64,000 bases of DNA from Patescibacteria group bacterium (GTDB lineage Bacteria > Patescibacteriota > Minisyncoccia > Phycocordibacterales > Phycocordibacteraceae): contig JAGWIS010000001.1 in assembly GCA_028866135.1 (NCBI GenBank), positions 13,357-77,356 on the forward strand. Reading direction: 5' to 3'. Below, one piece after another: positions 10,510 to 59,567 of this stretch. The translations under genes were made by a program, and so were the position numbers. A model generated the notes under the pieces. That model saw only the letters and a program-made list of their open reading frames with translations. It had not been told where the DNA came from and made no database searches. Positions within the stretch are counted from its first letter, which is position 1. Each line of letters opens with the position of its first letter.

Positions 10510-11160
10510 GTGCGCTACAATCGCCGCATGTGTTTTTCCGCAACGGCAAGCCTCGTAGCAGGCGGAGCGCTCACGGCAACGGGCGCCCTCACTATGTCGC
10601 AAGCAAAGACGAAAAAGGAACTTCCGCTTGCGAGCATTCCGCTTATCTTCGGCATCCAGCAGCTCACCGATGGTGTCGTCTGGCTTTCCTTCGGCGTGGA
10701 GCCGATTCACACAATCGCCGTATACGCGTATTCAATCTTTTCCCAAGCACTGTGGCCGATGTTTGTTCCCTGGGCACTCCTCCTTATAGAAACAGACCCC
10801 GCTCGAAAGAAAGCTTTGCGTCTTTTCTCCCTCTTTGGTCTTCTGGTGGGACTGTTTTTCCTTTTCTATATCGTTACCGGGCCCAACGTGGCAGAAATAG
10901 TGAACCACTGCGTCGCATACTACACCCCGCACCCGCACGTACTCACCACGCTCGCACTCTACCTCCTCGTAACGTGCGGATCCTGTCTCGTATCAAGCCA
11001 TAAACTGCTGAACATCTTCGGCATCGCGCTCTTCTTTTCGTTCATCATCTCGGGGTGGTTCTACATCGAGACGTTCTCCTCCGTCTGGTGCTTCTTCGCG
11101 GCGATCCTGAGCTTCATCATCTACTGGCATTTCCGCAGCCGCTCCGCGGCTGCGGCTTGA
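10510..11160 (+). CDS. Multi-pass membrane protein, function unknown.
   Basis: It has about 6 predicted TM helices. The true start is possibly MSQAKTKKE at about 10594. Confidence 0.4.
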   Translation: MRYNRRMCFSATASLVAGGALTATGALTMSQAKTKKELPLASIPLIFGIQQLTDGVVWLSFGVEPIHTIAVYAYSIFSQALWPMFVPWALLLIETDPARKKALRLFSLFGLLVGLFFLFYIVTGPNVAEIVNHCVAYYTPHPHVLTTLALYLLVTCGSCLVSSHKLLNIFGIALFFSFIISGWFYIETFSSVWCFFAAILSFIIYWHFRSRSAAAA

Positions 11161-11175
11161 GAGGCGTTCGTACTT

Positions 11176-11598
11176 TTACTCAAATACTTTCCGCCAAATG
11201 AAGCCGGGCTCCCCGCTAGGAGCCGCTGCCGGGCCGACTCTCTCAAAACCTGTGTGCTTATAAAATCCCCAAGACTTCCGATGGGCTTCGCTGCTATAGA
11301 GAACCGCCTCCGTGTAATGGCGGCTTTTCATTTCACTCAGCACTGCTTCCGCGAGCGCCTTCCCGATTCCGCAGCCCGGATTTTTCACGGCAAGGATGTA
11401 AAGTTCCGCCGGATTTCCGGTACTGGCAAAGGTGCGGATGTATGCGGGCGCTTTCCTCAAGATCGCCACTCCAACGACTTCTCCATTCTCCTCCGCAACG
11501 AAATATCCAAATTCCTGCTTTACTGATTCCGAAGCGTGGTTTACAAAATCAGCCAGTTTCTTTGAAAGCTTTTCTCTAAAGTCGCCCTCCCAATACAA
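11176..11598 (-). CDS. GNAT-family N-acetyltransferase.
   Basis: It has the acetyl-CoA-binding block AVKNPGCGIGKALAEA (Q/RxxGxG/A-like), and is 140 aa. Confidence 0.6.
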   Translation of the reverse strand: MYWEGDFREKLSKKLADFVNHASESVKQEFGYFVAEENGEVVGVAILRKAPAYIRTFASTGNPAELYILAVKNPGCGIGKALAEAVLSEMKSRHYTEAVLYSSEAHRKSWGFYKHTGFERVGPAAAPSGEPGFIWRKVFE

Positions 11599-11779
11599 AT
11601 CGTAGATACGCTCGACGGCTTCCGCATCCTCTCTTGGTGTTGGATGAGAATTCCAACGCGTCTCGAGCGCGATAACCTAGCACGACTTGGCTGCGGGATT
11701 GCGACTCGAACGCGTCCTGAGCGCGGGGAACCGCGCCCGAGACCCTTGACGAACTCGTGCGCACGTGTTGTGCTCGACT

Positions 11780-11853
11780 TGGCTGCCAGACTTGGATTCG
11801 AACCAAGATGACGACTTTCAGAGAGTCGCATCCTACCATTAGATGATCTGGCA
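11780..11853 (-). tRNA. tRNA-Gln (anticodon CUG), with CCA encoded.
   Basis: Hand fold: acceptor TGCCAGA/TCTGGCA, D arm ATCT-AATGGTA-GGAT, anticodon arm CGACT-CTCTGAA-AGTCG, T arm CTTGG-TTCGAAT-CCAAG, discriminator G plus CCA. Confidence 0.8.
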
Positions 11854-22353: not shown

Positions 22354-23265
22354 CTATTTTATCCTACCTTCAGCGGCTTGCCCAGCACCAACATTCTGAT
22401 TTTGGTGCTGGGCGTCTATGAACTCGTCGAGGTCGCCTTCAAGGACGCGGTCGGGATTTGAGGATTCATGGCCCGTGCGGTGATCTTTGACCATTTTGTA
22501 CGGGTGGAGGACGTAGGAGCGGATCTGGCTCCCCCACTCGTTTGCGGTCGTGGCGGCGATGGAGCGGCCTTTCGCTGCGGCCTCGCGCTCAGCTTCTTCT
22601 TTAGCGAAAATCTTTGCCTTGAGGAGCTCAAGCGCCTTCTCGCGATTGGCGAGCTGGCTGCGCTCGCTTGAGATATGCACGGAAAGATTCGTCGGTTTGT
22701 GGAGGATGCGCACGGCCGTCTCGCGCTTGTTGACGTTTTGCCCGCCCGCGCCTCCGGCGCGGGCGAATTGTATCTCAAGATCCTCCGGCTTGAGCTCGAC
22801 CTTGTCGGCCGCGACCAGGACCGGGAGCACCTCGACGAGCGCGAAGCTCGTCTGCCGCTTCGCATTCGCATTAAAGGGCGATTGGCGCACAAGCCGGTGC
22901 ACCCCGGCTTCGTGCTTGAGGCGCCCGTAGGCACCCGCGCCGATTATTTCAAGCATGAGATTTCGGTAGCCGCCATGATCGTTCTCATTCGCGTGGAGCT
23001 CGCGCACGCCCCAGCCTTTTACGGCGGCATAGCCCTCATACATGCGCCGGAGCATGCGTGCAAAATCTTCCGCGTCGTCCCCGCCCGCGCCCGCGAGAAT
23101 CGCAAGAGTCGCGTTCCCTCTATCGTGCGGATCGCCCCCGCCGCCATCCTTGAGCGCCTGGTATTCCGCAACGAGTTGCTGCGCCTGACCTTTGTCGAGC
23201 CAGAAATCAGGCGATGCCATCATCGCCTCAAGTTCTTCCAAACGTTTCTTCCCTTTCTCGTCCAT
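22354..23265 (-). CDS. prfB: Peptide chain release factor 2.
   Basis: It has the GGQ motif ([10 protein letters not shown]) and the RF2-specific SPF tripeptide (RQSPFNA). The ORF is uninterrupted, so there is no programmed frameshift. Confidence 0.85.
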
Positions 23266-23282
23266 ACGGGCGAGTATAGCAA

Positions 23283-23310
23283 AGCGCGCGGCCCTCTCGG
23301 ATCGCGCGCT
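23283..23310 (-). terminator. GC-rich hairpin with a weak U-tract between tRNA-Thr and prfB (possible terminator or processing site).
   Basis: The stem AGCGCGCG/CGCGCGCT has a 12-nt loop. On the minus strand it is followed by UUUGCUAU. Confidence 0.25.
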
Positions 23311-23316
23311 ACTTTG

Positions 23317-23389
23317 AGCCGCCCCGGAGGATCGAACTCCGGACCTTCGCGTTACGAATGCGATGCTCTACCAACTGAGCTAGGGCGGC
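23317..23389 (-). tRNA. tRNA-Thr (anticodon CGU), no CCA encoded.
   Basis: Fold: acceptor GCCGCCC/GGGCGGC, D arm GCTC-AGTTGGTA-GAGC, anticodon loop TTCGTAA, T arm CGGAG-TTCGATC-CTCCG, discriminator U. There is one A-C mismatch at 31:39. Confidence 0.75.
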
Positions 23390-23436
23390 AGACCGTGGAA
23401 ATATAGCACAATTTTATTTTTTACGGATTGAGCCGT

Positions 23437-23874
23437 TCATTGCAGCTTTCGAGCTGTGGTTACCCTCTTGCTCACCGCCCTGCCCTTTCTTCCCCTACCT
23501 CTATTGAGTCCTGCATACGTCGGCCCGAGCGCATCGCAATTCGGACAAACAAGACGAAGATTTTCTTCGCGGTTATTCTGCCAATTGCCGTCGATGTGAT
23601 CCGCCACGAGCGGCACCTTGCCGGTTTTCGGGTTCACCTTTGACCATCCGCACAAGCAGCATTTGTTGTCATATTTTTCACGCAAATATCTCTTTACGGA
23701 ATCCGCCACCAAACCGATCGAATTAAGTCCTTTTATGTCTCCCCGTTTCCAGCGCTCGATATAGATCCGGTATTGAAATTCATGCTGGCACGCATTGCTA
23801 CAGTATTTATAAAATGAGCGTGCAGGCTCTTTGCCACACACGGGACAGGGCACGCGCGGTTTCTTCGGATTCAT
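23437..23874 (-). CDS. HNH endonuclease with an N-terminal zinc ribbon.
   Basis: It has CPVCG...C..C followed by LVADHIDGNWQNNREENLRLVCPNCD, the HNH/His-Me finger. The start is taken at MNPKK. Confidence 0.7.
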   Translation of the reverse strand: MNPKKPRVPCPVCGKEPARSFYKYCSNACQHEFQYRIYIERWKRGDIKGLNSIGLVADSVKRYLREKYDNKCCLCGWSKVNPKTGKVPLVADHIDGNWQNNREENLRLVCPNCDALGPTYAGLNRGRGRKGRAVSKRVTTARKLQ

Positions 23875-24018
23875 GCGCCTATCGTAACGCAAATGTAGAC
23901 CAATCAAAAATCCTGTCTTGGTCGTTTTGTTGAAAAACTCTGGAGCCGAGAGTCGGGATTGAATCCCAGTAGGAAACCATCGGAATGGTGCCTACGGGAC
24001 AGGCCGACGAACCTTTTG

Positions 24019-24090
24019 AGCCGGAGGTGGGAATCGGACCCACGATCTTCGCCTTACCATGGCGACGTTCTACCACTGAACTACTCCGGC
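24019..24090 (-). tRNA. tRNA-Thr (anticodon GGU), no CCA encoded.
   Basis: Fold: acceptor GCCGGAG/CTCCGGC, D arm GTTC-AGTGGTA-GAAC, anticodon arm TCGCC-ATGGTAA-GGCGA, T arm GTGGG-TCCGATT-CCCAC (unusual TCC rather than TTC), discriminator U. Confidence 0.7.
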
Positions 24091-24103
24091 CATGGACGTA
24101 CTC

Positions 24104-24195
24104 TACTGCCAAGCGAGCCGAATCAAAAAGGAATGCAGTTCCATTTTGTGAGGCAAGCGACGGCAGAAAGCTTTGCTTACTGCCAAGCGAGCCGA
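24104..24195. repeat. 18-nt perfect direct repeat tactgccaagcgagccga in two copies (24104-24121 and 24178-24195).
   Basis: Seen directly in the sequence, 74 nt apart, between tRNA-Thr(GGU) and a tRNA-like 5' fragment. Its reverse complement contains TCGGC, which could pair with the GCCGA acceptor strand of the fragment. Confidence 0.6.
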
Positions 24196-24244
24196 GCGAC
24201 ATGCGGATGTCCTCATACGCATGTCCGAGGCAAGCGCGGGCAGG

Positions 24245-24283
24245 AAGCGTGCAAGAAACGCTTACCAACTGAGCTATCTCGGC
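24245..24283 (-). pseudogene. tRNA-like 5' fragment (acceptor strand and D arm only).
   Basis: The minus strand reads GCCGAGA-TA-GCTCAGTTGGTAAGC, a canonical tRNA 5' end. No T arm or standard anticodon arm follows, only an 8-bp hairpin GACATGCG...CGCATGTC. Confidence 0.35.
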
Positions 24284-24352
24284 TTCGCGCACCTGTGCAT
24301 ACTAACGGAGTTCTTTCATTCTTTCAATTTCCGTGATGTTTCCGGATGCCCT

Positions 24353-24646
24353 TCAGTACAGCAGGATGCCTACAACGATGACGATGTCGAAGAGTGCGAT
24401 GAATGCGTTCGCGAAGAAAAGCTGCTTGTCTTTGTGCACGGCGCCGTAAAACGCCCAGAGCATGTTGAAAACTGTAAGAAGAGTCCAGGTGAGGAGCGAA
24501 ACGCCCGCTCCGCTTTTCGTGCCGTAGATCTGGAGTATCTGTGGCACAAGCGCGACGGGCGCAAGGATGCCGACGCCGTACATGAGGTAATCGAGAAAAC
24601 GCTTCCACGCGCCCTCAGCAGGAAACGGTTCGAGGCCTTGCGTCAT
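24353..24646 (-). CDS. SemiSWEET (bacterial PQ-loop / MtN3-like 3-TM sugar transporter).
   Basis: 97 aa with 3 TM helices and the PQ motif (LVPQILQIY) followed by a conserved S...W. Confidence 0.55.
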   Translation of the reverse strand: MTQGLEPFPAEGAWKRFLDYLMYGVGILAPVALVPQILQIYGTKSGAGVSLLTWTLLTVFNMLWAFYGAVHKDKQLFFANAFIALFDIVIVVGILLY

Positions 24647-24728
24647 GAGCGCGCGCTTTCGCAGGTGATGGAAGCCGTGCATAGCGCGTATGATAGCCCG
24701 CGCACGCGCGCTATACTAGGCGCATCGT

Positions 24729-25085
24729 ATGGAAAACCTCGCGCACTACGCGAAAGAAGAGCGTCCGTGGGGCAACTTCGAGCGCTTCACGCTGAACGAA
24801 AAGACGACGGTGAAGATCATCGCCGTGAATGCCGGCGAGAGCATCAGCCTGCAGACGCACGAACATCGCGACGAATTCTGGCGCGTCATCAAAGGCTCGG
24901 GCACGATTCGCATCGCCGACAAAGAACATTCGGCGCGCGAAGGAGATCAGTTCTTCAGCCCGCGTCACGCGGAGCACCGCATCACGGGCGGACCCGAAGG
25001 GCTCGTCTGCCTTGAAATAGCCTTCGGCGACTTCGACGAAGGCGACATCAAGCGCCTCGAAGACCGCTACGGCCGCGCGTCATGA
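24729..25085 (+). CDS. Cupin-domain protein (type II phosphomannose isomerase C-terminal-like).
   Basis: It has the cupin motifs ISLQTHEHRDEFWRV...G and H in a second block, and is 118 aa. Confidence 0.5.
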   Translation: MENLAHYAKEERPWGNFERFTLNEKTTVKIIAVNAGESISLQTHEHRDEFWRVIKGSGTIRIADKEHSAREGDQFFSPRHAEHRITGGPEGLVCLEIAFGDFDEGDIKRLEDRYGRAS

Positions 25086-25843
25086 GCGAGGACGACGGGA
25101 ACGACGAGAGCCTTTCCCGCTCCCTCAACGATCCCGCGCTCCGCGCCGCCTACGCGAAGCCCTTCGACGGGCACCGCTGCGTGTTCATCGCCCGGCTTCT
25201 CGGATCGCTTCTCATCCATTCAGGGACGTTCGTTTACGGCCGCAAGCCTTCGTACGCGAAACTGAAAGCGATCGAAGTCATCGCCCGCATCCCCTACCAG
25301 TCGTGGGAGGTCGCGGCGTATACCATCCTCACCGCCCTGTACTCGGACGAACGCCGGGCGATCGAGCTCGCCAAGCTGAATGCCTTCAGTCGCGTGGCGC
25401 AGGACAACGAGACGATGCACGTCGTGGTCATCTCGCAGATCGTAGAGCGCCTCGGCTGCCAGGGATTCTTCCGCCACACGTTCATTCCGTTTCTCTTCTC
25501 GTTCTTCTATTTCTGGATGCTCTACTTTCTCTTTATCCTCTCTCCGCGTTCCGCGCTCGATCTCAACTACCTCTTCGAATCGCACGCATGCGCGCAATAC
25601 CAGGAATTTCTCGATACGGAAGGCGACCGCCTGCGGAAGACCCCGATCGCGTCGGCATTCCTCTCCTTCTACGGGAGGAACGTCAGGAACGAATACGAAT
25701 TATTCGAACTCATCCGGAACGACGAACTCATCCACCGGAACCGATCGGTGAGCGTGCTGAAATCGACTCGGAAACAAGAACGAACGGGGCGAGATGGAGT
25801 TCCTGGCGCTCAATTCCCCTCCGGGGTCGAGGAAGCCGCTTGA
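25082..25843 (+). CDS. Alternative-oxidase-like di-iron carboxylate protein (AOX/PTOX family).
   Basis: Four helix motifs resemble AOX iron ligands: IPYQSWE, DNETMH, LFESHA and IRNDELIHRN, compared with LET, NERMHL, LEEEA and RADEAHHR. Confidence 0.5.
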   Translation: MSEDDGNDESLSRSLNDPALRAAYAKPFDGHRCVFIARLLGSLLIHSGTFVYGRKPSYAKLKAIEVIARIPYQSWEVAAYTILTALYSDERRAIELAKLNAFSRVAQDNETMHVVVISQIVERLGCQGFFRHTFIPFLFSFFYFWMLYFLFILSPRSALDLNYLFESHACAQYQEFLDTEGDRLRKTPIASAFLSFYGRNVRNEYELFELIRNDELIHRNRSVSVLKSTRKQERTGRDGVPGAQFPSGVEEAA

Positions 25844-35735: not shown

Positions 35736-35942
35736 AAAGTGAGGAACAATATGACTGTCCTCAGTTATATTTTCCGAACGCAGCCGATGCAAGCCTTCTT
35801 ACATCGGCGAGCGAGAGCATACGGAAATGTATGTCCCCATACATTTCCGTATGCCTCGAGCGAGCCGGATGAAAGCGTGCAAGCAACGCTTACAGCGGCA
35901 ATTCATCGGTTCGTTACTGAAACACTACCAAAGGCTTCCTGT

Positions 35943-58838: not shown

Positions 58839-59080
58839 GTGTAGCAGAAACGCCCGTTTTATCGCAGTTCGATTCCGTTACCCATGCTCAAAATCTGATC
58901 TATTTCGTTATGACTACACCACAAAACCACCCGAGTACGTGAGTACCGGAATCGCACTGGATATGTGTTGAAAATGCTGTGTGACCTCGCGCAGATATGC
59001 GCTTTTATCGCTCGACACCCGTGCCGGTCTTGAACCAATTTTGACGCGTAACGGTCTCTGATATGGGTCGCACTAGTCTG

Positions 59081-59398
59081 TTGCGGGGGTGGGACTTGAA
59101 CCCACGTCTGGAGGTTATGCTTGCCACTACAATTTTCATTGCCCTATGGTTTGTGGTCTGGACTATGCCTTCACCCGTCACACTGATTTTAAATCTAGTG
59201 AGGCGGGTGTCTGCCGTCTAGTCTCTACACCTTCTCCGCGATATGGCGAGTCGCCTATCTCACGGAGCTTGGCTCGGTATTGCCTTTCGCTTTTTGCAGG
59301 AAGGGTTCGCCGAATTTGACAGATGATCTTACGCGCAATTACTCGCGCGCACGCCCGAATGACTCAAGCCTCCCGAGGTACCTCTCCTCTACCCCGCT
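59081..59398 (-). tRNA. Initiator-like tRNA-Met (anticodon CAU) interrupted by a group I intron, 318 nt in total.
   Basis: The 5' exon (59398-59367) is AGCGGGG-TA-GAGG-AGAGGTA-CCTC-G-GGAGG-CU. The 3' exon (59119-59081) is CAUAA-CCTCC-AGAC-GTGGG-TTCAAGT-CCCAC-CCCCGCA-A. The joined loop is CUCAUAA. The 3' end CCCCGCAA and the A1-A72 mismatch resemble bacterial tRNA-fMet. Confidence 0.65.
59120..59366 (-). ncRNA. Group I intron (Azoarcus-like IC3 type) in the anticodon loop of the tRNA-CAU gene.
   Basis: The minus strand has GGUGUAGAGACUAGACGGCAGACACC (near-identical to the Azoarcus P7 region) and GGCAUAGUCC. The intron ends with G before the 3' exon, and a P2-like hairpin CGCGC-GAGUAAUU-GCGCG lies near its 5' end. 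Confidence 0.65.
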
Positions 59399-59567
59399 AA
59401 TAATCAGTATACATAGAAAAAATTGCGGAGCAACTTGGATTTGGAAGCGAGAAAATGGTCCGAGATGCGCGACGCGGGAAGCTGGCTTTCGGAGACGTAC
59501 TAGAAGGTACGGCGAAGGAAGTCAGCGGGGCCCGCAACAAAGCAGATGGGATTATTTTCTCGCTTCC

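Follow-up and report, generated by a model that had tools for sequence, protein, structure and literature searches.

The minus-strand segment 24327-23941 of the window—i.e. the whole 64-kb stretch of DNA analysed here—is probably a single tRNA transcription unit that grew over the ruins of the tRNA-Thr(GGU) gene which this lineage originally had, with the inner tRNA-Thr(GGU) as the working gene. Judged from their sequence, the outer pieces are the collinear 70-nt remnant of a single dead tRNA-Thr(GGU) gene. Two alleles of this gene have to be told apart: type O, with a GCCGAGA... acceptor, and type I, the type of the inner gene, with a GCCGGAG... acceptor. The features of the locus, and those of a second tRNA gene with tandem leader units, are as follows.

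23316-23389, minus strand: intact tRNA-Thr(CGU), found by ARAGORN and Rfam (62.2 bits); a conserved gene that serves as landmark on the right-hand side of the insertion hot spot
23437-23874, minus strand: predicted free-standing HNH endonuclease gene, 145 aa from its ATG (Pfam, PHROG)
23941-23963, minus strand: outer tRNA-Thr(GGU) nt 54-76, comprising T loop, T-stem 3' strand, acceptor 3' strand, discriminator U, and encoded CCA
23964-24003, minus strand: 40-nt hairpin that separates G53 from T54 in the outer T arm
24004-24015, minus strand: outer tRNA nt 37-40 and about 46-53, AAGG TTC GTCGG, from alignment with L002, L006, L009, and L026
24018-24090, minus strand: inner intact tRNA-Thr(GGU), no encoded CCA (ARAGORN; Rfam tRNA, 69.6 bits)
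24091-24103, minus strand: outer tRNA nt 22-34, GAGTACGTCCATG, comprising D-stem 3' strand, anticodon-stem 5' strand, and start of the anticodon loop
24104-24121, minus strand: 18-mer copy 2, the end of unit 2 plus GGCAG TA, running directly into outer tRNA nt 22-34
24111-24184, minus strand: leader unit 2, with GGCAG-TA, hp1 AGCAAAGCTT, CTGCC, AT-rich hp2, and TCGGCTCGCTT
24178-24195, minus strand: 18-mer copy 1, the end of unit 1 (TCGGC TCGCTT) plus the start of unit 2 (GGCAG TA)
24185-24266, minus strand: leader unit 1, with the hp1a hairpin AGCGTTTCTTGCACGCTT, CTGCC, hp2 with a GAGGAC loop, and TCGGCTCGCTT
24263-24283, minus strand: outer tRNA nt 1-21, comprising acceptor 5' strand, U8A9, D-stem 5' strand, and D loop
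24299-24327, minus strand: putative sigma-70-like promoter, TTGAAA-17 nt-TAGTAT, from a consensus scan
35737-35899, minus strand: two tandem leader units abutting tRNA-Met (35735-35663), with 93.2 and 40.8 bits in covariance model R1 and both in its seed

The promoter-like sequence lies upstream of the 5' end of the outer tRNA, at a distance of 15 nt. Leader unit 1 overlaps the last 4 nt of the first outer piece.

Every feature named in the first-pass annotation is present where it had been placed. The two tRNA-Thr genes, CGU and GGU, are recovered by both ARAGORN and Rfam, and the HNH/zinc-ribbon gene between them, ORF 23874-23437(-), matches Pfam HNH_3 and PHROG 1271. The tRNA 3' sequence GGGATTCAATCCCGACTCTCGGCTCCA lies on the minus strand and ends at 23941, the tRNA 5' end GCCGAGATAGCTCAGTTGGTAAGC lies on the same strand and starts at 24283, and the perfect 18-mer TCGGCTCGCTTGGCAGTA (minus strand) has exactly two copies, with no third in the 64-kb window even at 3 or fewer mismatches (0.06 expected). 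The observation that the tRNAs here do not encode CCA, while tRNA-Gln does, holds for both intact tRNA-Thr genes, but the 3' fragment of the dead gene encodes CCA. Three relationships had been missed: the 5' and 3' fragments are mates with complementary acceptor strands (GCCGAGA and TCTCGGC); two more pieces of the dead gene lie immediately on either side of the inner tRNA; and a second repeat of 22 nt, 86% identical, occurs at 24150-24171 and 24227-24248, with a period of ~75 nt that it shares with the 18-mer.

The outer pieces were identified with L002 as reference, a close relative with an intact tRNA-Thr(GGU). The 5' piece, 24283-24263, is 100% identical over 21 nt to L002:339-359, the start of that gene, and the 3' piece, 23963-23941, is 100% identical to L002:392-414, the match at the gene's end covering 23-25 nt. 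Between them, GAGTACGTCCATG agrees at 12 of 13 positions with GAGCACGTCCATG, the sequence that tRNA-Thr(GGU) has in L006, L009, and L026, and nhmmer aligns 24106-24089 to positions 19-36 of an intron-bearing tRNA-Thr profile. Once reassembled, the 70-nt outer gene is identical to that of L002 at 60 of 67 positions, and likewise to that of L009, with order and orientation of the pieces kept; it lacks 6 nt from the 3' strand of the anticodon stem and the variable region. Three interruptions break this gene, at 21/22, about 35/36, and 53/54. Specifically, the D loop holds a 159-nt insertion, the anticodon loop a complete tRNA-Thr(GGU), and the T loop the 40-nt hairpin, which folds as such and splits a GTCGG-TTCAATC-CCGAC arm that is contiguous in L002. 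Neither this hairpin nor the hp2 of unit 2 has a homologue among the fetched loci. The promoter block AAATTGAAAGAA...TAGTATGC also precedes tRNA-Thr(GGU), or its leader, in L002 and L009.

An interleaved locus of this kind could reflect a chimeric mis-assembly of two co-occurring strains, one with a type O and one with a type I tRNA-Thr(GGU). The source is probably metagenome-assembled, both alleles occur in related populations, and Ga0172379 gave type O contigs (L100) as well as contigs with leader units (L129). We give this explanation almost no credence. The stretch 24153-22861, which holds unit 2, the inner tRNA, the T-loop hairpin, the outer 3' piece, the HNH gene, tRNA-Thr(CGU), and the start of prfB, is not mis-assembled, because the independent Logan assembly L001 (SRR32006850) reproduces it at 99.85% identity. 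Moreover, a chimera joins at one point and would not interleave four collinear pieces with three inserts.

The same pieces could instead be the exons of a living tRNA-Thr(GGU), with the ~270 nt between them forming an unusual intron, e.g. a divergent group I intron, that hosts a second tRNA. The acceptor strands are perfectly complementary, the 343-nt stretch folds with a closing helix (z = -3.76), and L006, L014, L038, L047, L064, and L077 have an intron after the GGT anticodon, near the site of the inner tRNA. Group I introns at position 36/37 of tRNA-Thr(GGU) are known from Patescibacteria, and divergent members escape RF00028 (Nakagawa et al. 2026, PMC13011429), so a missing Rfam match is not decisive alone. 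Living exons are nonetheless very improbable. No single splice restores the outer gene, because it has three separate interruptions and lacks 6 nt of its anticodon stem. The joined pieces give no tRNA in ARAGORN, even with the relaxed -ps90 setting and an intron search—i.e. the fully "spliced" product is rejected—and the fragments therefore do not form the foldable noncanonical, intron-bearing tRNA that the first-pass annotation had named as the result that would overturn its reading. A group I intron of the known kind would be a single insert at 36/37 with the core …GAATCCCGAATAACGGTTAA…GACCGTGGC…GAACGACTGACAAGGG…AAGATACAGTCTA…, and the insert is negative for this core in Rfam (E up to 10), in blastn against the L006 intron, to which it has no similarity, and in the nhmmer profile. 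Made from four tRNA-Thr genes with introns, that profile finds L014 and L047 with E ~1e-56, and in the window it matches exon-like segments alone. The fragments do belong together, though not as a noncanonical tRNA.

A tmRNA at 24283-23941 was also considered and rejected: the ARAGORN tmRNA search is negative, the acceptor pair 3:70 is C:G, and Rfam has no match. Neither ARAGORN nor Rfam (E up to 10) finds a known RNA family across this interval.

The first-pass annotation read the region as the scar of repeated insertions or excisions at tRNA genes, or as tRNA-derived repeats, which was largely right and is supported in part. There is a scar with three insertions, but it lies in a single gene and does not record several events at several genes. 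The locus has no sign of excision and no integrase-type att duplication, because the inner tRNA and the outer pieces differ too much to be copies of one another (45/66 identical, or 68%). It is thus unlikely that the fragments are decayed att-site scars of integrase-mediated islands, in which the 3' or 5' part of a tRNA was duplicated as attL and attR. Such an origin would fit the well-known use of tRNA genes as targets of integration (Reiter et al. 1989, as cited in PMC3218864) and several duplications in this group: L005 has a 46-nt exact repeat of the tRNA-Thr(CGU) 3' half 38 nt downstream, the window's tRNA-Gln has a 78% copy of its 3' end and flank 92 nt downstream, and the final 15 nt of a tRNA recur unchanged 65-220 nt downstream in L010, L026, L029, L045, and others. 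At the Thr locus, however, the outer pieces total one gene copy, and they lie on both sides of the inner tRNA and in mid-gene, which a single crossover cannot give. An integrase-like ORF is also absent between semiSWEET and prfB, none occurs in 22354-24682, and inspection by eye of the variable spacers in nine relatives suggested no integrase or transposase genes.

Partial tRNA genes that integration or rearrangement has left at tRNA loci (Reiter et al. 1989), such as the fragments known from Aeropyrum and Thermosphaera (Chan, Cozen and Lowe 2011, PMC3218864), are similar in that non-functional pieces stand beside an intact tRNA in a variable region. They differ from the present case, where a single collinear gene encloses its apparently functional replacement, duplicated att cores, integrase, and provirus are lacking, and the inserts are of 40-159 nt or a tRNA gene.

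The inner gene, 24090-24018, is a canonical cloverleaf whose 69.6 bits compare with an Rfam RF00005 gathering score of 29. It is the sole tRNA-Thr(GGU) within the window, and a second one may exist elsewhere in the genome, of which these 64 kb were examined. Its sequence is 81-86% identical to tRNA-Thr(GGU) of L112, L138, and L196; aligned with native genes, it agrees at 62 of 72 positions with L196 and at 59 of 72 with L138, vs 55 of 73 with L002. In these sister lineages the matching chromosomal position is occupied by type I as the native gene. For example, the gene order of L138 is cupin-semiSWEET-leader-tRNA-Thr(GGU)-tRNA-Thr(CGU)-prfB, and L112 and L196 have the semiSWEET-leader-tRNA-Thr(GGU) part of this order. 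The closest relatives carry an intact type O gene. The window itself is mixed, with a semiSWEET context like that of type I lineages and a promoter and PrfB like those of type O lineages, and a larger inter-lineage recombination may lie behind this mixture. An exact-sequence look-up of the semiSWEET protein returned no record.

The 159-nt insert in the D loop consists of two tandem leader units, and each 18-mer spans a unit boundary. Both units show the architecture described by R1, a covariance model that was built without the Thr locus. Unit 1 is clear (33.3 bits, E 4e-5, third best R1 match in the window), and unit 2 is weak alone (15.6 bits, E 0.18, fourth best) but stands in tandem and in register with unit 1. 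The repeats are tRNA-associated and partly tRNA-like, which comes close to the tRNA-derived repeats of the first-pass annotation, but they are the boundaries of conserved, structured leader units and not anonymous repeats. The closest known copy of the leader unit, in a related genome (L129), precedes an intron-bearing tRNA-Asn; unit 1 is 84% identical to it over a 51-nt blastn segment and about 70-75% identical over the whole unit.

The complement of the 18-mer had been proposed to pair with the outer acceptor strand. Instead, pairing is within the units, between the CTGCC segment and GGCAG at the unit boundary. This CTGCC, the segment that follows hp1, pairs with GGCAG and not with the inner tRNA's GCCGGAG. 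It is thus not complementary to nt 1-7 of the next tRNA, and the units at the Thr locus are not tuned to the inner gene; they may be inert here. The junction sequence GCTCGCTTGGCAGTA resembles the D-arm sequence GCTCAGTTGGTA.

Two other identities of this region were rejected. An apparent "tRNA-Lys CUU" anticodon arm in AGCGT-TTCTTGC-ACGCT, after the 5' piece, is hp1a, the conserved first hairpin of leader units, which occurs before Met, Thr, and Arg tRNAs with a variable loop (UGCUUGC, UACUUGC, and UGCGUGC). CRISPR-like or MITE-like repeats do not apply either: there are two spacers only, no terminal inverted repeats, and an internal segment that varies with the flank, and therefore a simple transposon with target-site duplication is a misfit.

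Within the window, leader units of this kind also stand before tRNA-Met; in relatives they stand before genes for tRNA-Thr, Met, Arg, and Asn. Each consists of N7-TA, hp1 (AGC…GCTT), a 7-nt segment complementary to the next N7, GCTCGYTCGG, a long hp2, and TCRCTY. The TCRCTY end abuts tRNA +1 or the next unit, and hp2 is a long helix that stops 2-3 nt before tRNA +1. In other loci, R1 matches are found next to tRNA 5' ends only. At its start a normal unit repeats tRNA nt 1-9 exactly or nearly so, and an exact copy of the first 9 nt occurs at most 250 nt upstream of 18 of 136 tRNAs, vs about 0.13 expected. Across 20 normal units, 119 of the 140 positions of the segment after hp1 pair with the first 7 nt of the downstream tRNA. 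We also find covariation among 22 units: 85% of cells are paired vs 77% in shuffles, and 15 pairs are changed on both sides, a number reached by 0 of 500 shuffles. A strict minihelix scan (N7-TA-hairpin-N7', at most 1 wobble pair) gives three clean cases only, because most units contain bulges.

A metagenome scan with the hp1a pattern returned at least 120 matches, mostly chance matches to a near-palindromic 16-mer. Among the matches listed, ~16 are true units, and none is a strain-level relative of the Thr locus or a closer relative with an intermediate state of nesting. The leader family has no match in Rfam 15, and we found no description of a bacterial pre-tRNA leader family of such architecture. 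The family is real, conserved, and structured, and it does not seem to have been described previously.

Given that leader units carry copies of tRNA 5' ends, nothing may have been inserted at all: the region could be a normal multi-unit leader of the inner tRNA, with the 5' piece as an extended copy of nt 1-9 and the 3' piece as an unrelated trailer. The exact 9-nt copies at other tRNAs and the tandem units at tRNA-Met in the window, and in L009 and L196, agree with this, but we regard it as improbable. With 21 nt the 5' piece is longer than a 9-nt copy, and its match is to the type O acceptor, not that of the inner tRNA. Furthermore, type O nt 22-34 and 37-53 abut the inner tRNA, one on either side, and nt 54-76 with CCA come next, in order. 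The outer pieces are missing from sister lineages that carry the type I tRNA; specifically, GAGTACGTCCATG and AAGGTTCGTCGG...TTCAATCCCGACTCTCGGCTCCA are absent as flanks of the type I tRNA-Thr genes in L112, L138, and L196.

A broader interpretation, which we offer tentatively and consider rather doubtful, is that the leader units are a not previously described class of cis-acting pre-tRNA RNA in this Paceibacteria clade. The anti-acceptor segment of a unit would pair with tRNA nt 1-7, prolonging the hairpin to the processing site and timing 5' maturation. Units would spread among tRNA genes as recombination-prone, semi-mobile modules, and a unit landing inside a gene, e.g. in the D loop of the old tRNA-Thr(GGU), would kill it; the loss of tRNA-Thr(GGU) would then be rescued by a nested replacement gene. 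The processing stalks of rRNA and leader-trailer pairing in pre-tRNAs are comparable in that the hp2 helix lies near +1 and the 7-nt complement extends into the mature sequence. The leader units differ from these in that they also carry a 5' copy of tRNA nt 1-9 and may be tandemly repeated.

The ORF between the tRNA-Thr genes is a phage-type, independently mobile gene for a predicted free-standing homing endonuclease. It matches Pfam HNH_3 at 25.7 bits (cut-off 24.8) and PHROGs 1271 (E 3e-17), 14736, and 10822 (range E 3e-17 to 7e-15), and the protein has the beta-beta-alpha-metal HNH nuclease motif and an N-terminal, YacG-like zinc ribbon. A promoter-like block lies upstream of the gene. Homologues occupy the same site in L006, L012, L022, and L062 with 65-74% identity, and in all five carriers, including the window, the gene lies 17-48 nt upstream of tRNA-Thr(CGU). 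Its occurrence is patchy, with about 75 other collinear loci lacking it. Identity to the distant carriers is 65-67% vs 55-61% for PrfB, as expected for a horizontally moving gene. An exact-sequence look-up of the protein gave a near-identical 1.3-kb contig as its sole result.

In phages, free-standing HNH endonucleases of the T4 Mob and Seg type mediate "intronless homing", and collaborative homing takes place beside intron-bearing genes. The gene found here resembles these in its small ORF, its own putative promoter, its patchy distribution, its fixed point by conserved genes, and its higher identity than a housekeeping protein. It differs in being a chromosomal gene of a Patescibacterium with tRNA neighbours, and its link to the tRNA disruption is conjecture. 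It is a matter of speculation whether breaks made by this HNH enzyme, or by an endonuclease homing to the anticodon-loop group I intron site of relatives, started the rearrangements.

In the nested history that we favour, the original tRNA-Thr(GGU) would have been a type O allele that survives as nt 1-21, 22-34, 37-53 (with the 6-nt deletion), and 54-76, and the three insertions would have hit one cloverleaf loop each, i.e. the D, anticodon, and T loops. The similarity of GCTCGCTTGGCAGTA and GCTCAGTTGGTA would let leader units enter the D loop, by homeologous recombination or by template switching from the leader of another tRNA. The inner tRNA would be transcribed from the old promoter within a composite precursor, from which the ordinary 5' and 3' tRNA-processing enzymes would release it.

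Two known kinds of broken tRNA gene come close to this arrangement. The group I system of Nakagawa et al. (2026) shares with it the tRNA species, the clade, and a break in the anticodon loop within 1-2 nt of the same position, and six relatives carry that intron at this very place in the genome. By contrast, at the present locus a tRNA gene does the interrupting, the intron core is missing, there are two more breaks and a deletion, and the host gene is dead. The split, permuted, and multi-intron tRNAs of archaea (Nanoarchaeum, Caldivirga, and Thermoproteales) are likewise broken in D, anticodon, and T regions, and have separate parts with complementary acceptor strands. Those tRNAs, however, are functional and need a bulge-helix-bulge motif and the splicing endonuclease, which bacteria lack, whereas here the anticodon stem is partly deleted and a complete isoacceptor gene is present.

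For the biology of these bacteria, the locus indicates that apparent tRNA "debris" in a reduced genome is open to an exact reading: probably, an essential tRNA gene was destroyed in place and replaced by the allele of a sister lineage within its own anticodon loop. This would be a clear instance of how Patescibacteria replace tRNA genes, next to a mobile endonuclease and at the place where relatives have group I introns. For annotation, it explains the "orphan" halves that tRNA finders leave at this locus, and it cautions that in these genomes annotation systematically overlooks both tRNAs with introns and tRNA-like leader copies. Of the whole finding, the leader family has the most novelty: a conserved, covarying RNA stands before many tRNA genes of the clade, and its pairing with the tRNA 5' acceptor strand offers a testable hypothesis of tRNA maturation.

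At the Thr locus, a dead tRNA-Thr(GGU) gene quite probably surrounds its own replacement along with two clade-specific structured leader units, and the neighbouring HNH gene is probably mobile. Coordinates at the locus are given as minus-strand reads; L numbers denote comparison loci and contigs, and R1 is a covariance model of leader units built without the Thr locus.

Features of the Thr locus
24283 (start), minus: tRNA-like 5' end GCCGAGATAGCTCAGTTGGTAAGC
24266-24185, minus: leader unit 1 (R1, 33.3 bits, E 4e-5)
24184-24111, minus: leader unit 2, in tandem with unit 1 (R1, 15.6 bits, E 0.18)
24103-24091, minus: outer-gene nt 22-34, GAGTACGTCCATG, 12 of 13 nt identical to GAGCACGTCCATG (L006, L009, L026)
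24090-24018, minus: intact tRNA-Thr(GGU), the inner gene (ARAGORN and Rfam)
24015-24004, minus: outer-gene piece AAGG-TTC-GTCGG, anticodon-loop end and T-stem 5' strand
23941 (end), minus: tRNA-like 3' end ...GGGATTCAATCCCGACTCTCGGCTCCA
23874-23437, minus: HNH ORF, 145 aa, between the two tRNA-Thr genes
23389-23316, minus: intact tRNA-Thr(CGU) (ARAGORN and Rfam)
Outer-gene interruption 1: between nt 21 and 22, D loop, 159 nt
Outer-gene interruption 2: about nt 35/36, anticodon loop, the whole inner tRNA and a few nt more
Outer-gene interruption 3: between nt 53 and 54, T loop, a 40-nt hairpin

The first-pass annotation had described a tRNA hot-spot here, and its elements are in place: the two tRNA-Thr genes, both called intact; an HNH/zinc-ribbon gene between them, with matches to Pfam HNH_3 and PHROG 1271; the tRNA-like 3' and 5' ends; and two perfect 18-nt direct repeats, TCGGCTCGCTTGGCAGTA, with no further copy in the 64-kb window at ≤3 mismatches (0.06 expected). 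A second repeat of 22 nt (86% identity) has the same period of ~75 nt. The hot-spot label is fair, given that as little as 6 nt or as much as 2.5 kb of spacer lies between the two Thr genes, with cargo that is unrelated from genome to genome. L001, a public contig from an independent assembly, matches 24153-22861 at 99.85% identity.

GCCGAGA at the start of the 5' fragment and TCTCGGC-U-CCA at the end of the 3' fragment are the two strands of a single acceptor stem; this stem forms the closing helix when the 343-nt stretch is folded. Across 80 loci around prfB fetched from Paceibacteria genomes, the order tRNA-Thr(GGU), variable spacer, tRNA-Thr(CGU), prfB, ftsE is widely conserved. In the relative L002, whose PrfB is 88% identical to that of the window, the intact tRNA-Thr(GGU) (GCCGAGATAGCTCAGTTGGTAGAGCAGCGCCATGGTAAGGCGCAGGTCGTCGGTTCAATCCCGACTCTCGGCTCCA) has a first 21 nt and last 23-25 nt that are 100% identical to the window's 5' and 3' fragments. 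The other two pieces, GAGTACGTCCATG and AAGG-TTC-GTCGG, both touch the inner tRNA. Joined, the four pieces form 70 nt collinear with the relatives' genes (60 of 67 nt identical to L002, and likewise to L009), with a single gap of 6 nt, in the anticodon-stem 3' strand, when aligned to them. ARAGORN calls no tRNA in this joined sequence, relaxed settings included, which points to the outer gene being a dead form of the tRNA-Thr(GGU) original to the clade, here type O. The earlier reading of a scar or of tRNA-derived repeats thus stands in part: the fragments would be one dead gene, while the repeats are junctions of leader units.

The inner gene has a GCCGGAG acceptor, the D arm GTTCAGTGGTAGAAC and a TCCGATT T loop, and is only 75% identical to the tRNA-Thr(GGU) of L002. 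Among the matches listed from a metagenome scan, L112, L138 and L196 carry tRNA-Thr(GGU) genes that are 81-86% identical to it, with no type O pieces around them. In L138 this type I gene is native and stands in the full window order (cupin-semiSWEET-leader-tRNA-Thr(GGU)-tRNA-Thr(CGU)-prfB), and L112 and L196 have the semiSWEET-leader-tRNA-Thr(GGU) part in common with the window. The inner tRNA thus appears to be a sister lineage's allele. The window's promoter block (AAATTGAAAGAA...TAGTATGC) and PrfB are nearest to type O lineages, and their combination with a type I tRNA suggests a mosaic locus, in which a live type I gene lies within the anticodon loop of its dead type O counterpart, downstream of a type O promoter. 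At L009:807-950, the leader of an intact type O tRNA-Thr(GGU) opens with the gene's own nt 1-9, and a 3' fragment (CCAATCCCGATCCTCGGCTC, 1 mismatch to that gene's 3' end) lies ~124 nt downstream; this arrangement looks like a more decayed version of the window's nesting.

An alternative is that the outer gene is a live tRNA split by an intron. In six relatives, the GGT anticodon of tRNA-Thr(GGU) is followed by an intervening 190-235 nt with a common core (L006:2484-2789, L014:2888-3156, L038:2136-2399, L047:2716-2980, L064:2305-2563, and L077:2582-2844), and neither ARAGORN nor Rfam at its gathering threshold finds any of the six genes. Nakagawa et al. (PMC13011429) described these "divergent group I introns" at 36/37 in Patescibacteria; they escape RF00028 and ARAGORN. 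A profile of four such genes, which recovers L014 and L047 at E ~1e-56, matches only exon-like segments in the window (24283-24262 to positions 1-23, 24106-24089 to positions 19-36) and nothing there matches the intron core. Given three interruptions and a deletion, the outer tRNA could not be rebuilt by a single splice, and we reject the intron-split reading. One intron-bearing noncanonical tRNA, raised in the first-pass annotation, is not what the pieces form, as ARAGORN rejects them once joined and they lack an intron core.

Elsewhere in the window, a group I intron (RF00028, 56 bits) at 59375-59127 (minus) lies inside a tRNA missed by ARAGORN (~59070-59400). From its exons, GCGGGGTAGAGGAGAGGTACCTCGGGAGGCT and CATAACCTCCAGACGTGGGTTCAAGTCCCACCCCCGCA, we read this as a putative tRNA(CAU), either Met or Ile2, that has its intron at 33/34, a position reported for Patescibacteria.

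Within the window, the leader family is seen most clearly in a tandem pair at 35899-35736 (minus) that adjoins tRNA-Met (35735-35663). These units have 20 of 21 nt in common with the start of the Thr insert (GTAAGCGTTGCTTGCACGCTT vs GTAAGCGTTTCTTGCACGCTT), and the proximal one opens with an exact copy of tRNA nt 1-9 (GCCGATGTA) and has the exact complement CATCGGC.

Parts of a leader unit, in order
N7-TA: copy or near copy of tRNA nt 1-9
hp1: short hairpin, AGC...GCTT, often AGCGTTGCTTGCACGCTT
N7': 7-nt segment
GCTCGYTCGG
hp2: long hairpin, often with a GAGGAC loop
TCC-TCRCTY: abuts tRNA +1 or the next unit

The same architecture is found upstream of tRNA genes in the closest relatives (L002, L004, L006, L007, L009, and L010) and in ~16 metagenome contigs among the matches listed, where it precedes tRNAs for Met, Thr (GGU, CGU, UGU), Arg(CCU), Asp, and others. 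An exact copy of a tRNA's own first 9 nt occurs ≤250 nt upstream in 18 of 136 tRNAs (~0.13 expected). The structure has good support: across 22 units, paired cells reach 85% (77% in shuffles), and 15 pairs are changed on both sides, a level attained in 0 of 500 shuffles. Pairing in hp2 is 85-95%, and its closing pair covaries (TCGTTCGG...TCACT vs TCGCTCGG...TCGCT). Of 140 positions in N7', 119 pair with nt 1-7 of the tRNA downstream and only 107 with the upstream copy, which in no case pairs better; the combinations seen are ATG/CAT, AGA/TCT, GCG/TGC, and GGG/CCT. R1 gives four hits with E <0.3 in the window, two being the tRNA-Met units in its seed, and its matches in other loci are confined to the close clade and nearly always adjoin a tRNA 5' end. 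A leader family that pairs with the tRNA 5' acceptor strand appears undescribed, and we infer its leader function. A leader-like unit at L100:1137-1215 (minus; R1, 29.8 bits) lies downstream of tRNA-Thr(GGU) with no tRNA after it, and carries the GCTCGCTTGG motif, the same variant as in the window's 18-mer.

At the Thr locus, the 18-mer is a unit junction, joining one unit's end (TCGGC-TCGCTT) to the next one's start (GGCAG-TA), and the CTGCC after each hp1 pairs with the GGCAG of the junction. Among the matches listed, the nearest relative of unit 1 is in L129 (84% identity in a blastn segment of 51 nt, roughly 70-75% for the unit as a whole), which has leader units on both strands (11440-11620, minus; 11000-11170, plus). 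That unit is followed by a pseudo 5' half and an intron-bearing tRNA, by our reading a putative tRNA-Asn(GUU), whose group I intron (75.6 bits) sits at 35/36; the subtype thus occurs at different tRNA genes in related genomes. The junction GCTCGCTTGGCAGTA resembles the D-arm sequence GCTCAGTTGGTA, and the D-loop insert opens right after ...GGTA and closes with ...GGCAGTA, the outer gene resuming at G22. This is the pattern expected of homeologous recombination or template switching between D arm and leader array, by which the units may have entered; it does not fit a transposon with target-site duplication. The outer gene would have died through the D-loop units or through the type I nesting, orders that we leave unranked. 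The units are unmatched to the inner tRNA acceptor and so may be inert passengers.

The HNH ORF is just over threshold for Pfam HNH_3, matches phage HNH families strongly (PHROG 1271, E 3e-17) and carries an N-terminal YacG-like zinc ribbon. Homologues with 65-74% identity are found in L006, L012, L022, and L062, and in every carrier the gene, which has its own conserved upstream block (TTGGTCTRC...), ends 17-48 nt upstream of tRNA-Thr(CGU). It is absent from ~75 collinear loci, and between the window and L022/L062 its identity (65-67%) exceeds that of PrfB (55-61%). Fixed site, patchy presence and higher identity are the signature of a free-standing homing endonuclease gene, and we predict a mobile one here. 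The nearby tRNA-Thr(GGU) is nested or dead in the window, intron-bearing and directly upstream of the HNH homologue in L006, intact with a pseudo 5' half upstream in L022, and not found nearby in L012 and L062; a link between enzyme and tRNA damage is suggestive, five cases being too few.

Fragments of tRNAs are common in these genomes. At L005:3318-3480, for example, 46 nt of tRNA-Thr(CGU), from anticodon loop to CCA, recur as an exact copy beyond a 38-nt spacer, a pattern that fits an att-type duplication whose element is all but gone. In the window, the 3' end of tRNA-Gln (encoded CCA included) plus 8 nt of flank recurs at 78% identity 92 nt downstream (11680-11711 vs 11772-11803). L050, L053, and L081 (L081:377-550) carry pseudo-copies of the downstream tRNA (Thr, Gln) with GC-rich hairpins (e.g. 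CCCGA...TCGGG and CCGCC...GGCGGG) in the D and anticodon loops; these are in tandem and upstream of the live gene, not around it. AT-rich relatives have one or two pseudo 5' ends, GCCNNNNTAGCTGTYTTGGTAGG, upstream of tRNA-Thr genes (L022:2740-2786, L038:2100-2135 and 3025-3113, L033, L049, L055, L057, and L081), in which the first 12 nt are those of the tRNA and GTY replaces CAG, a motif kept across genomes and across CGU and GGU genes. Separately, a 253-aa ORF at 25082-25843 (plus) matches Pfam AOX (alternative oxidase, E 9e-9), a gene one would not expect in a genome of Patescibacteria type.

Homing endonucleases and tRNA-gene scars are both of known kinds, and for the present locus we infer the mechanisms of origin. 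What is unusual as a variant is that the dead gene holds a complete isoacceptor gene, its orthologue, in its anticodon loop.
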